From the NCBI GenBank assembly GCA_019057475.1, contig DXJO01000039.1:1-64000 (forward strand): a stretch of DNA of 64,000 nucleotides, written 5' to 3'. Both the position numbers and the translations under genes were made by a program. A model generated the notes under the pieces. The model saw only the letters and a list, made by a program, of their open reading frames with translations. It was not told where the DNA came from and made no database searches. Below are positions 28,801 through 35,404 of the stretch, one piece after another; the first letter of the stretch is position 1; each line of letters opens with the position of its first letter. Source of the DNA: Candidatus Thorarchaeota archaeon (GTDB lineage Archaea; Asgardarchaeota; Thorarchaeia; Thorarchaeales; Thorarchaeaceae).

Positions 28801-29361
28801 TTAGGAAGGCGCATCAACAACAAGCCTATAGTAATAGATGGAGCCCGCTGTAGGACTGGCCCGTTCAATCCGGATAACCTGCTCAACCTTTGCGCCCAGG
28901 ACTCTCGCTGCTGGATCGTCTCTCAGTATTCTTGGCAATTGACGCTTCTCCATGCCATAATGACTGAGTACAAGTTGCACTTCACTTTCTTCAGCGATTG
29001 TATGCTGGGGGACCAGCTCATGTCCGAACAGGTCAAACGAGGCATATCCGCCCTCGACAAGTTCGACCCTCGTAATTCTAGCGTACTTCTTGGCAGCAGG
29101 TGTGTACCTTGTCCCTCCTACAAGCATACCTTGAATGGAGTTGGTTTCTTCCATCTCCTTCACGATGTCTCTAACTATGGCCACTCCAATGACCTTCTGT
29201 TCCTTGAAAATCCAGACTACAGACTTCAGGACATCTTCTTCATCCGTTTTTTCAGGATAAAGCGCGTATCTATTCTCATATTCGAGAACTTCATCCACGA
29301 CATATCTGCGCAGATTCAGAAGAGCTCTCGTTTTCATTACAATGGAAGGTAGCTCTACCAA
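28801..29361 (-). CDS. rpoH: RNA polymerase subunit Rpo5/RpoH with a eukaryote RPB5-like N-terminal domain, copy 1
   Basis: HELVPQH, LPRI...DP, RIER.SPTAG...YYRLV; ~105-aa N-terminal extension with TPAAKK. Confidence 0.9.
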   Translation of the reverse strand: MVELPSIVMKTRALLNLRRYVVDEVLEYENRYALYPEKTDEEDVLKSVVWIFKEQKVIGVAIVRDIVKEMEETNSIQGMLVGGTRYTPAAKKYARITRVELVEGGYASFDLFGHELVPQHTIAEESEVQLVLSHYGMEKRQLPRILRDDPAARVLGAKVEQVIRIERASPTAGSIYYYRLVVDAPS

Positions 29362-29453
29362 TTGACAACACCCGATTAGAACAATTCATCCATACTTGGC
29401 GCCCTTATAAGAGTTGTAGAGTGTTGGCCAATTCTGACCTCCAAGTACACTGT

Positions 29454-30011
29454 TTAGTTGGAATCCACAACAAGACGGTAGTAATATACAATGCCAGAGG
29501 TTGCACTATCGCGTTCAATTCTCACGACTTGACCGGGCTTCGCTCCAAGTGCCTTGGCAGCTGGATCATCTCTGAGAATTCGCGGAAGCTGATTCTTTTC
29601 GATTCCGTAATGGCTGAGCACGAGTTGTATTTCATCAGCACTGACAATTGAGTGCTTGGAAACAAGCTCGTGTTGGAATATGTCAAAGGATGCGTAAGTT
29701 CCCTCAATCAACTCAACCCTTGCCGTTCGAGCAGATTTCTTGGCCGCAGGGGTAAACCTCAGGCCGCCCACGAGCATGCCATCCCGTGCATTTCGCTCTT
29801 CCATTTCCCGAGCTACTTCCCTGACCAGGGCTACCCCGACCACCTTGGACTCCTTGAGAATCCAGGTGACCACTCTAACCGCATCTGCCCCGCTGTCTTT
29901 GATTGGATACATTACGTATCTGTTCTCGTACTCGAACAGCTCATCGACTACATAATCGCGCATAGTCAGTAGAGCTCTCGTCTTAATTACAATAGCTGGA
30001 AGTTCCTCCAT
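29454..30011 (-). CDS. rpoH: RNA polymerase subunit Rpo5/RpoH with a eukaryote RPB5-like N-terminal domain, copy 2
   Basis: HELVSKH, LPRILRDDP, GAKPGQVVRIERDS.TSG..YYYRLV; start MEELP set by alignment with copy 1. Confidence 0.9.
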   Translation of the reverse strand: MEELPAIVIKTRALLTMRDYVVDELFEYENRYVMYPIKDSGADAVRVVTWILKESKVVGVALVREVAREMEERNARDGMLVGGLRFTPAAKKSARTARVELIEGTYASFDIFQHELVSKHSIVSADEIQLVLSHYGIEKNQLPRILRDDPAAKALGAKPGQVVRIERDSATSGIVYYYRLVVDSN

Positions 30012-30113
30012 CTGAGAAGCACCCCTAGGCAAGCTCGCACGCCCATTTGAAAGGCATATAAACATTGTCAAGTATTCTAGTCAGAAAGGGGTATCGTGAG
30101 GGCAGACTAAGAT

Positions 30114-31862: not shown

Positions 31863-31881
31863 TCCACTGACGCATACTATT

Positions 31882-34005
31882 TTATTGTCCAAACTTGTCA
31901 CCCCTTGAGGGAAGTCCGGATTGGCCCTGGTATGCGGACAGGGCACGGTTAGCGTAAGTCATTGCAGCATTGTGATGTCTGTTCACTCTCTCACCACATT
32001 CATCGCATCTCAGAGTGTCCCAGTCACCTGTATTTATTAGCCTGCCTCCACAGTTCACATGAGTACCCACTCTTGGTGCAACACCCTTTGTTTCCACTGG
32101 GACTCCTTTCACGTCAAGTACTTCCAGTGCGTACTCCATTATGATCTCTAGCCTCTTTGGCATGTGAGTTATCGCTTTAGCCAGGGCTCCTCTTGTGCCT
32201 CTTGTGCTCAGTTTCGATATGTTCATCTCATAGCCTATGACCTCTGGTCTGCACTCGTAGACGACCTCTGCCAGCAGTCGCCCACAGGCTCTGTCAAGCT
32301 CAGCCTTCAGTCTTGCAACACGTGCATGAACCATCGCAATCTCCTTCTTCAGTTTGTAGGACATCCGCTTCTTGTTCAGGCGTTCATACTTTGCCCTCTT
32401 TCTTGTGAGTCGTGGTAGAACAACATCCCTCAGTCGGACTATCCTCTTTGATATCTGCTCAACACGACTCATGTCACCAAGTGGAGCTCTCTCTGTTGAC
32501 CCGATCACAAACACATCCTTCGATGGACGATTCGGGTCTACTCCAACAGCCTCTACCGACCTCTTCTTGATCTTGATGCGGTTCAAGAATTTTGTGCTGG
32601 GCTTGAAGTCCGGAATCTCAAGGACGATATCGAATTTCACTTTCTTCGTTGGCCCCTCTGGCGGCAGTACACGTGCTGACCTGACTCTTGCTCCTTGCAA
32701 GATGTGGCTCCTGATTGTCTTGCTCGCTATCACTCTCATTGTGATCTTTCTTCTTCGACTGGGTCTGACTGTGAACTCTGTGTAACCCATGTTCCGAAAG
32801 TCGTCAGTGATCTGGGTCGAGTTGCCACGGGCTATCACATACTTCGGACCCATGTGTAGCTCCAACGGGAGTTCGTTGCGTGTTGTGCTGCTGAAGGGGA
32901 CTGATATGCAGTTGCTGACTGTGAGATGCCTGATGAACCCTCTCTCATCTGTGACTAAGGAGGCTGCAATGATCTCTCTGAGAGCTGACAGGTAGTTATG
33001 TCGTCCTCCAAGTCTACTTCTGACAACTTCAGACAATGACTTGAGGAATCGCCTTGAGGGCAGGATATGCTCAAGAAGGTCTTCGAACTCATCGACTCTG
33101 TCGGTCAGGTCCTTGACCTTTCTCAGGAACACCTCTGCTCTCTGGCTGTCCTTACCATCACGTTTCATCGACTCGATGTTGTTCTCAACACGTCTCAGTA
33201 GGCGTCTAGCTTCTCTCACAAAGTCGTTCTTCCTCACTCTGAATGTCGAATGGGGCGGACTCACATGAGCCAGCCTGTCCATCCCTCTGACAAGAGTGTC
33301 AGTCTTTCCTACGAACACCAACGCATGCATTCTCTGCAACTTGTTCAATACTCTCTCGTCACCATTGAACAGTCGCCTGTGTGCCTCTACCTGTTCATTC
33401 ACACGATCAATCCTGTAGGATAGCTTGTCATCTATCTTGTTGCGGAGACCTCGAATTGTAGCATTCATCCATCTCTCCTCTACGTTGAACATCTTTGCCA
33501 TGGTCAGTGAAAGGTATCTGGGCACCTGTCCGAAGAACGCTATCGAGGGAATACACACTTCAAAATCACCTTGTAGCAGGTCTCTCAACTTCTTGAGCTT
33601 CTCCACTAGGCTCATCTGTACCTCGCATGCATTCCCTAGAGAGTAGAAGTACGAGTGAGCAAGGTTCTCCTCGATCCCTGTGTGCGCTCGCAATTTGGCT
33701 GCTCCGCTAATACCACCACTCGATATCGCTCCTGAGCGAAAGAGCTGGAATGCAATTGGTGCAAGACACTTTGCTTGGGACATTGCGCGACGACAGAATT
33801 TAGAAACAGTGTCAGCAGCCTCGTACTCCAGTGACTTCGGAGTTCCTTCAGGTCGTCGCCAGCTCGTTGTATAGGTGCGGATCTCAGGTTGTTGTTGAGG
33901 TTCTGTTGTCTTGGTGTTGTTGTTTGGGGTCTGGGGTTGTGATGGTGTGCGGTTGGTGGTTGCGGCGGGGGGCAGCTGCGGGTGGGTAGTTCTCACATCG
34001 GTCAT
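31882..34005 (-). CDS. tnpB: large TnpB-like RuvC protein (IS200/IS605/IS607 TnpB-Cas12-Fanzor superfamily), 707 aa
   Basis: N-terminal IRTYTT strand; RuvC-I AVGVDPN; bridge-helix-like basic region; RuvC-II VIGYE; zinc ribbon HVNC...CDECG; RuvC-III-like NRHHNAA. Confidence 0.82.
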   Translation of the reverse strand: MTDVRTTHPQLPPAATTNRTPSQPQTPNNNTKTTEPQQQPEIRTYTTSWRRPEGTPKSLEYEAADTVSKFCRRAMSQAKCLAPIAFQLFRSGAISSGGISGAAKLRAHTGIEENLAHSYFYSLGNACEVQMSLVEKLKKLRDLLQGDFEVCIPSIAFFGQVPRYLSLTMAKMFNVEERWMNATIRGLRNKIDDKLSYRIDRVNEQVEAHRRLFNGDERVLNKLQRMHALVFVGKTDTLVRGMDRLAHVSPPHSTFRVRKNDFVREARRLLRRVENNIESMKRDGKDSQRAEVFLRKVKDLTDRVDEFEDLLEHILPSRRFLKSLSEVVRSRLGGRHNYLSALREIIAASLVTDERGFIRHLTVSNCISVPFSSTTRNELPLELHMGPKYVIARGNSTQITDDFRNMGYTEFTVRPSRRRKITMRVIASKTIRSHILQGARVRSARVLPPEGPTKKVKFDIVLEIPDFKPSTKFLNRIKIKKRSVEAVGVDPNRPSKDVFVIGSTERAPLGDMSRVEQISKRIVRLRDVVLPRLTRKRAKYERLNKKRMSYKLKKEIAMVHARVARLKAELDRACGRLLAEVVYECRPEVIGYEMNISKLSTRGTRGALAKAITHMPKRLEIIMEYALEVLDVKGVPVETKGVAPRVGTHVNCGGRLINTGDWDTLRCDECGERVNRHHNAAMTYANRALSAYQGQSGLPSRGDKFGQ

Positions 34006-34112
34006 TTCGTGTCACCGCCAAGTGTTTCTTGCTGTTGACATCTGTTAGAACTTCTGAATTATATGGACCGAACTAGTAGTGGTGTTTTTCAGAGAGTGTA
34101 TGGCAGACACCA

Positions 34113-34120
34113 TTATATAC
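34113..34120 (+). promoter_or_regulatory. putative archaeal TATA box upstream of the repeat array
   Basis: TTATATAC ~36 bp before the first array unit; also reads as TATA-like on the minus strand. Confidence 0.45.
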
Positions 34121-34155
34121 GCACTAGGGGTAATATCCTCCACTATCAGAGGTTC

Positions 34156-34346
34156 AGGTTGCACGAATTTGACCGCTCGATTGGCGCAGATTGCATTCTA
34201 GTGACCAGTCGTCTGCACAGGTTGCAGCCCTGTGACCGATTGCATATCTCAAGTTGCATCAAAATGACCGTTCGTGTCTGTGAGGTTGCAATAGAATTAC
34301 CGTTTGGGTCTCGAATGTTGACTCCAAATGACCACTCTGTAGGACA
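34156..34346 (+). repeat. array of six 31-32-bp units, consensus AGGTTGCA-N6-TGACCRNTYG-N7/8
   Basis: TTGCA (TTGAC in unit 6) at 34159, 34191, 34222, 34254, 34286, 34318; each followed after exactly 6 variable nt by TGACC (TTACC in unit 5). Confidence 0.9.
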
Positions 34347-34372
34347 ATAAACTCAATAAAACGCATCAAGGA

Positions 34373-34615
34373 ATGGTGAACTCATTGGTCTCAAGGGACT
34401 CTCTTCCTCAGGAGCGACTCACTCGTGAGTCTGTGGCAAAGGTCATCCACAACAGAGGACATATGGTGTTGCTCATGGACTATCTCAAGGCATATCCTGA
34501 CGAGCTACTCAGAGGAGTACTTGTTGCAGGGTCAATCGGTTCCGGTAAGACTGAGAGGGCTAAGAGCATTGTAATGGCAGCTCTTGACTCTATAGTGGTT
34601 GGAGGCATGTCTTGA
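34373..34615 (+). pseudogene. truncated P-loop ATPase fragment (HerA/FtsK/VirB4-like Walker A)
   Basis: GVLVAGSIGSGKT, then ends ~20 aa later with no Walker B. Confidence 0.55.
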
Positions 34616-34794
34616 GTGAGCCAGTTCGAGGGGAACGTGAGTCAATGCAGTTATCCATACGTCTAGTCAGGAGGTTATGTAAGGCAGTGGTAGACTCTGT
34701 GTTGTGGGAGACCCTAATAGAGAGTGACCCCAAGGTCAATCAGTTTGAGGAGGTTCTTAGAAGATGTATCAGGATTGAGGGGGATGCTTGGTGA
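34612..34794 (+). CDS. small hypothetical protein
   Basis: TTG start overlapping the upstream stop (TTGA), GGAGG upstream. Confidence 0.4.
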   Translation: MSEPVRGERESMQLSIRLVRRLCKAVVDSVLWETLIESDPKVNQFEEVLRRCIRIEGDAW

Positions 34795-35338
34795 GCGACT
34801 TTCCCCGTCGTGATCTATGAAGTCGTCCTGCAAAAGATGTGACAAGTGCAATGATATCTTCTGCAAGTGTGTGATCTCTGTCTGCTGAGGGAAATACGCG
34901 CTCGACTCTGACACCAATATGACTGAGAAGTTCTTTCAGAGTATGAGTCCCGAAACGTGCAAGGCGGTCATCATAGGTAATGAGCATTCTGTCAACAGCG
35001 CCAGAAGCACATAGTCGCAGAAGCCTGGGCAGACCTTGATGTCTGTCATTGAGACCAGATGCGATATCAAAATACTTCTTGACAATGAGATAGTCATTCT
35101 CAAGAGCATAGTCTTCCAGAGTGTTCAACTGGTGACGAAGATCATCCTTCTGTTTATGTGCTGAAACTCTTGCATGGAGAGCAACAGTCTTTGGAGTGTT
35201 TGACCTTGTAGAGGTCTCATATCTTCGATGACTCCTAGTGTTCTGAGAGTAGAGATGTATTTGCCTTTCTTTTCCCATCATCTGAGTGTTGATGTTGAGA
35301 CCAAGATTTCTTGCCATGATACCAATTCTTACTAACAT
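34769..35338 (-). pseudogene. tnpA: IS607-family serine transposase TnpA with a damaged N-terminal HTH
   Basis: ARVS..KQK.DL..Q, DIASGLN, DRLARFG, L.EDII.LVTSFAGRL; the HTH segment TLR*WEKKGK...RTLG lies in another frame. Confidence 0.85.
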
Positions 35339-35404
35339 GACAAGATTGCAACAGGGTTTTCCCTTCTGAATGCAACGGTGAAATTGCATCACAGAAGAAG
35401 ATGG

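Follow-up and report, generated by a model that had tools for sequence, protein, structure and literature searches.

The locus in the window

The window, a stretch of 64,000 nucleotides from a Candidatus Thorarchaeota archaeon, houses a 3.5-kb IS607-type composite element. Between its tnpA and tnpB genes lies a cassette with a row of six phased sites and the remains of an ATPase gene (Table 1). A sequence-only reading had described this row as six 31-32-bp units with the layout TTGCA-N6-TGACC, and both coordinates and layout were re-found as described.

Table 1. Features of the composite element and its internal cassette (window positions)
Feature	Positions	Strand	Remarks
IS607-type composite element, 3.5 kb	31870..35376	-	AC/GT core dinucleotide at both junctions; without longer target duplication
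Right end, overlapping the tnpB 3' end	31870..31975	-	about 107 nt conserved; candidate omega-RNA/end region
IS607-type TnpB, 707 aa	31882..34005	-	RuvC D490, E593, H677; conserved D663; P/T/Q-rich N-terminal leader supplied by the cassette
Cassette left arm	34006..34155	-	ribosome-binding site, 5' leader, AT-rich box TAATAT at 34131-34136
Six phased sites	34156..34346	+	31-32-bp period; two boxes in each unit, 11 bp apart
TATA-like box	34346..34351	+	27 nt before the ATPase start codon; putative function
ATPase gene 5' fragment (Walker A)	34373..34591	+	89% to P0152; profile positions 5-67
ATPase gene 3' fragment	34592..34794	+	hhalign 96%, E 3e-9; profile positions 724-787
IS607 tnpA serine recombinase	34769..35338	-	Resolvase E 7e-16; HTH region scrambled by compensating frameshifts
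IS607 left end	35339..35376	-	boundary common to L001, L028, L078 and the G012 MITEs

The units start at 34156, 34188, 34219, 34251, 34283 and 34315 (spacings of 32, 31, 32, 32 and 32), and in 15 of 31 columns five or all six units have the same letter. No other spot in the whole 3.34-Mb genome shows nine or more such columns. Scored with a matrix derived from ten other loci only, the array reaches 72.8 bits versus 28.2 bits for the next-best chain, and this matrix scan found no second such chain in the host genome. The six-unit array is real, and it is unique within this Thorarchaeota genome. An Rfam search of it returned no family. Among 400 Asgard genomes the exact two-unit pattern occurred in this genome only, and viral contigs gave five single matches, apparently by chance; exact patterns are unfit for a family search because the family consensus is too degenerate. 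The 12-13-nt variable segments are present in their own genome at the array only, being too short for a meaningful target search.

The empty site of the element was found in two genomes of the same genus (G001 and G005), where the flanks are joined at a single AC dinucleotide, and the flanks are also adjacent in G003 and G006. Like IS607-family elements carrying TnpB, the element combines a serine recombinase TnpA with a right-end TnpB, a dinucleotide core without target duplication, and MITE derivatives; it differs from them by its GT instead of GG core, by its 707-aa TnpB with a His at RuvC-III, and by the cassette as internal cargo. The tnpA frame is intact in the related copy L078. The 107 nt of the right end show about 80% nucleotide identity in relatives with 52% protein identity and in five MITEs of one genome (G012), and by analogy with TnpB biology they may serve as an RNA. 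These MITEs (L009, L014, L016, L018 and L019), each of 290 bp, consist of left end, tnpA stub, tnpB stub and right end. The conserved end and the ends-only MITEs together indicate that transposition does not need the array and that TnpB has an ordinary right-end RNA candidate.

The TnpB is a member of a large Asgard IS607 family, present in 54 of 400 genomes and ranging from 580 to 1700 aa, in which the RuvC-III position is a His and an almost invariant Asp (D663) stands 14 residues upstream. Together these two residues may possibly form a rearranged active site. The His is also seen in RIIIr-4 (PMC10691335), to which the window protein is likened by this residue, not classed. In other members of the family, tnpA often lies directly upstream of tnpB. 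A candidate TAM is the ACC-GT of the target flank. Window positions 28801-30071, which lie upstream of the insertion site, hold two tandem Rpo5/RPB5-like genes with N-terminal extensions.

A HerA-type ATPase gene and its upstream arrays

The small ORF past the array is the 5' end of an ATPase gene of which the window retains 73 codons from the start and 64 from the end. The stretch of about 2 kb that once joined these fragments, encoding the ATPase core and both winged helices, is deleted, as is also the case in L078. A six-frame search of the 96%-complete genome found no intact family member. The array is therefore an orphan.

Intact relatives are about 800 aa long, with a HerA/VirB4/TrwB-type ATPase in front of two winged-helix modules of MarR type. 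The ATPase fold is supported by DUF87 (E 2e-9), by a Foldseek match to HerA 4d2i (E 3e-8) and by the presence of Walker A and B. The domain begins at residue about 40, the model shows no membrane segment, and the loci are chromosomal. In structure comparison the winged helices match MarR/ArsR/HxlR repressors with Z of 11-12; MarR/ArsR-type proteins came on top and Rep3-type initiators were not among the best 50 matches listed. The described HerA ATPases (HerA-NurA, Sir2-HerA, DUF4297-HerA) share the ATPase fold and the pairing with a nuclease. They differ in having fixed co-operonic partners, no winged helices and, in HerA, a HAS barrel, whereas the partner of the cassette is divergent and exchangeable.

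We found 15 relatives of the ATPase, the named ones all from Thorarchaeota, as are the relatives of the array-neighbouring proteins in general. The distribution is patchy, with matches in seven of 400 Asgard genomes; a scan of genome contigs gave no further loci, and no relatives of TnpB or of the ATPase were found in viral contigs. In the literature covered, which leaves out most subscription journals, this gene family and its array are nowhere described together. The ATPase-2xwHTH cassette is, as far as this literature goes, previously undescribed, and no known family fits all of its features.

A six-unit row lies directly upstream of the ATPase gene in all 11 independent loci examined, nine of them strong and two weak, and the 250 bp upstream of the gene align over these loci nearly without gaps. 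The search for units took its seed from the window and imposed a count of six. Under these settings, leave-one-out scores were 40-74 bits in nine loci, with shuffle maxima of at most 13, and 18 and 5.5 bits in the weak loci L112 and L095. Sites one period beyond the array ends score low, except in L098 with a possible seventh unit; the L087 array is cut by the contig end. The mean of 55 spacings is 31.8 bp, or 10.6 bp for each of three turns, units 1 to 6 span 158-161 bp, and a pooled, model-free autocorrelation peaks at 32 and 63 (0.34 and 0.32 vs about 0.26). More distant ATPases (L122-L126) have no such array.

The family consensus is about TT[GT]C-N7-T[GT][TGA]CC-R-N-TT, with the two boxes as direct repeats 11 bp apart and a near-random unit centre (0.01-0.35 bits per column). 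An AT-rich hexamer follows box B of unit 6 by 16-20 nt, before the ATPase start, in 11 of 11 loci. An inverted AT-rich motif stands just before unit 1, at the same place in the 10 loci where it is readable. These motifs are probably outward-facing TATA-like boxes. The array fills exactly the gap between the two promoter-like boxes. In order, the cassette reads: divergent nuclease-like gene, AT-rich box, six phased sites, TATA-like box, ATPase gene.

Two further observations concern these upstream regions. The tail of unit 1 (window 34180-34187, about TTCGCGC) has 69% identity across all 11 loci vs about 25% in the other tails; we read it as an extra position-specific site. In a distant version from another Asgard family (L102, G162 C47), a separate wHTH gene and ATPase accompany a divergent P/T/S-rich ORF and a clear TATAAA box; the boxes are similar (TTGCA-N6-TTGC) and their spacing is irregular, which counts against the operator reading given below.

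What may bind the array

The sequence-only reading had also offered phased protein-binding sites about three helical turns apart as an alternative to a guide array. This part held up, and the array units are very probably protein-binding sites on double-stranded DNA. TnpA and the TnpB-like protein, named then for binding tests, are not the likely binders; the cognate ATPase-wHTH protein, whose broken gene adjoins the array, is. Boxes resemble each other more within a locus than between loci (0.64 vs 0.50, permutation p 5e-4), and the variable columns, at 0.29 within vs 0.26 between loci, are not homogenised. A box sequence particular to each locus without homogenisation of the units fits a locus-encoded binder better than gene conversion. 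It is no proof of co-evolution, as related loci share protein and boxes alike. Both recognition helices are conserved at 0.43-0.44, compared to 0.18-0.32 for the rest of the C-terminal half of the ATPase.

On balance, we favour the array as a six-site operator on double-stranded DNA for the adjacent HerA-type ATPase with its two tandem winged-helix domains; transcriptional switching would be its main role. Both readings have moderate confidence. HerA-family proteins are hexamers according to the titles of the structure matches, and by its family the ATPase would form a hexamer like HerA/VirB4/TrwB. Each subunit would occupy one unit, with one winged helix on each of the boxes 11 bp apart, and about 190 bp would wrap the ring in a circle of about 21 nm. 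The match of six subunits with two winged helices each to six units with two boxes each is at most suggestive. The wrapped ring would occlude or license both divergent promoters, switched by the sensing of ATP or DNA, and the ATPase would thereby control its own gene together with a potentially toxic nuclease. Against wrapping stands the fact that HerA-type rings normally thread DNA and do not wrap it.

A second role for the same binder is considerably less likely. Here the array would be a loading site or origin, on which the motor assembles in order to translocate, unwind or mobilise the island, with promoter control as a side effect. An FtsK/HerA-family motor with C-terminal winged helices beside direct repeats resembles Streptomyces TraB/clt of the traB-traR Kil-Kor system, where an ATPase of this superfamily carries a C-terminal DNA-recognition domain and has direct repeats nearby (PMC4447253). 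TraB differs as a membrane pore on conjugative plasmids reading 8-bp repeats. The cassette ATPase is chromosomal and, by its model, soluble, with two MarR-type winged helices and six sites of 32-bp period between promoter-like boxes; a membrane-anchored translocase on a conjugative plasmid is not what we find. Plasmid Rep initiators of iteron origins (RepE, pi, TrfA) likewise put two winged helices per chain on upstream direct repeats and repress their own gene (PMC8034659). The Rep proteins have no ATPase, and the best structural matches of the cassette protein are of MarR/ArsR type. Iterons, moreover, are near-identical and about 20 bp long. The patchy occurrence of the cassette, at varied chromosomal places beside nuclease genes, would suit a mobilised island. 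Against this role, the loci read showed neither an integrase, a primase or a relaxase nor a membrane segment, the winged helices look like repressors, and the array fills exactly the space between two promoter-like boxes.

It is improbable that the sites are bound by a host factor, namely an oligomeric regulator of Lrp/AsnC type or a chromatin protein. Archaeal Lrp operators (Ss-LrpB, Ptr2, FL11) are degenerate, clustered sites two or three helical turns apart that control promoters and are wrapped by an oligomer (PMC2995911), and the mean spacing of 31.8 bp agrees with this. The Ss-LrpB consensus even starts with TTGCA (PMC4046817). On the other hand, Lrp sites are imperfect inverted repeats of 13-17 bp with an AT-rich centre, two to four per region, read by a small RAM-domain protein, while the array has six asymmetric sites of two direct-repeat boxes around a near-random centre and an 800-aa ATPase. 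The host genome contains no second chain, and the array tracks one patchy gene. The host factor stays alive as a rival through the genome G034, whose two arrays resemble each other (0.56) about as much as their own units do (0.55 and 0.63 internally), a likeness also expected from a host factor.

The guide-array reading, in which a transcript of the array would be cut into short dual-variable guides for TnpB in the manner of TIGR or CRISPR, is very improbable and already largely refuted. In its favour are the head-to-head position to an oversized TnpB, the make-up of each unit from two conserved and two variable segments, and a TnpB partner at a second locus (L088). The GGUUG/UGACC stem claimed for the units does pair in 87% of cells in the window array. 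It fails in homologous arrays, with 43% pairing in 60 other units vs 42% with shuffled partners and four of the five pairs retained in only 5 of 60 units. Folding z-scores between -1.9 and +1.2 on both strands of 11 arrays give no signal, and a within-unit covariation scan reached a best excess of 0.08 among 253 stems. The TATA box placed at 34113-34120 is present as TTATATAC; judged by six close relatives, which carry C instead of the third-position A, it is a private substitution of the window copy and no conserved feature. The unit number is fixed at six in 11 loci and variable segments are inherited, never added. The array follows the ATPase gene and not tnpB: only two of the eight known partners are TnpB, and no periodic array was found beside about 40 distinct other Asgard TnpB loci.

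TIGR arrays have 36-nt units with two spacers of about 9 nt, repeats of 8-12 nt at edge and loop, and a Nop-domain protein (PMC12045711). The window unit of 31-32 nt has 5-nt boxes with gaps of 6 and 12-13 nt, and its neighbours are TnpB, the ATPase-wHTH and TnpA, with no Nop-domain Tas or Cas gene within the element. A type V CRISPR array does not fit either, as related loci show no spacer gain or loss and no conserved repeat hairpin. The likeness to TIGR-Tas and type V CRISPR arrays is a superficial one of layout, conserved and variable segments alternating; the cassette lacks box C/D motifs, a Nop-domain protein and spacer turnover.

Least credible is the reading of the units as an internal transposon end or as motifs bound by the IS607 TnpA. 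In its favour, direct repeats in helical phase are what TnpA binds (PMC6188088), and the array matrix gives 7.9 bits to one site of the left end, which among about 350 positions is roughly chance. Against it, TnpA motifs sit 20-60 bp from the ends and the array 1.0 and 2.3 kb inside, the five MITEs moved without it, and for ten arrays the sequence read contains no called tnpA.

Partner genes and history of the cassette

A divergent gene stands on the other side of the array in all eight loci where this side is visible. Five partners are LAGLIDADG-like, by a Pfam match (L098, and below cut-off L113) or by motif only (L089, L093, L095). One is HNH-like with HTH repeats (L090, motif by eye), and two are TnpB: an unrelated TnpB in L088 and the IS607 TnpB in the window. 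Several partner genes open with a P/T/S-rich leader, and in the IS copy L011 the TnpB leader and the DNA upstream of it can be aligned with the corresponding parts of the HNH-like gene of L090. The left arm of the cassette, retained in every IS copy, is probably the divergent promoter of the partner gene.

The simplest history would be that the cassette entered the IS607 element between tnpA and tnpB, supplied the 5' end of tnpB, travelled with the IS and decayed. The captured cassette would give tnpB its promoter, start and disordered leader, and then lose its ATPase. Alternatively, two IS insertions could have been followed by deletions.

Close IS copies lose units and never gain them. Three copies (L028, L029, L078) share all six units with the window, variable segments included, and differ by point changes; L030 and L077 retain four units, L001 one, and L011, the relative with 52% protein identity, about one, while L003 breaks within unit 1. 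The variable segments keep identity and order in L028, L078, L077 and L030. Changes in two six-unit copies, which are not independent, amount to 5/120 in boxes vs 13/72 in N6, and changed sites in all four copies to 13/60 vs 25/131, so that the picture of box selection is mixed. Copies with 0-4 units still have an intact tnpB. The window array is now probably a relic, with tnpB no longer under its control.

More speculatively, the cassette might be a portable nuclease controller, a possibility we hold well below the operator reading itself. A hexameric HerA-type motor would wrap the six-site operator as an ATP- or DNA-sensing switch before unrelated selfish nucleases (LAGLIDADG-like, HNH-like and two TnpB clades) and supply promoter, start codon and disordered leader, making homing or RNA-guided cutting conditional in Asgard archaea. 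If the operator reading is right, a family of DNA-pumping ATPases would have taken on the work of a regulator that recognises specific sequences and wraps DNA, with a six-site operator to match, and cassette capture would be a route for mobile nucleases, TnpB included, to change their expression control. The correspondence of six to six and two to two offers a sharp in vitro test. For guide-array hunts, a caution follows: a degenerate 32-bp dual-box array near TnpB may be the leftover operator of a deleted gene.

Some related gene arrangements were seen in genome G000. At L126:689-5956 (C21:65188-70455), two genes in the same direction, one for an 852-aa TraG/VirB4-like ATPase and one for a LAGLIDADG-like protein of 902 aa, are inserted as a pair beside a tRNA-like sequence, with no array upstream. 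A second pairing of an ATPase with a homing-endonuclease-like protein is L127:2824-10409 (C42), where a membrane-anchored VirB4-like ATPase (1065 aa) precedes a 1457-aa acidic, HTH-repeat, LAGLIDADG-like protein. Finally, C18:107752-108732 and C18:17714-18637 carry a stand-alone HNH-HTH-repeat gene, which adjoins a tRNA-like sequence, and a LAGLIDADG-like gene; both genes are related to the partner genes of the cassette.
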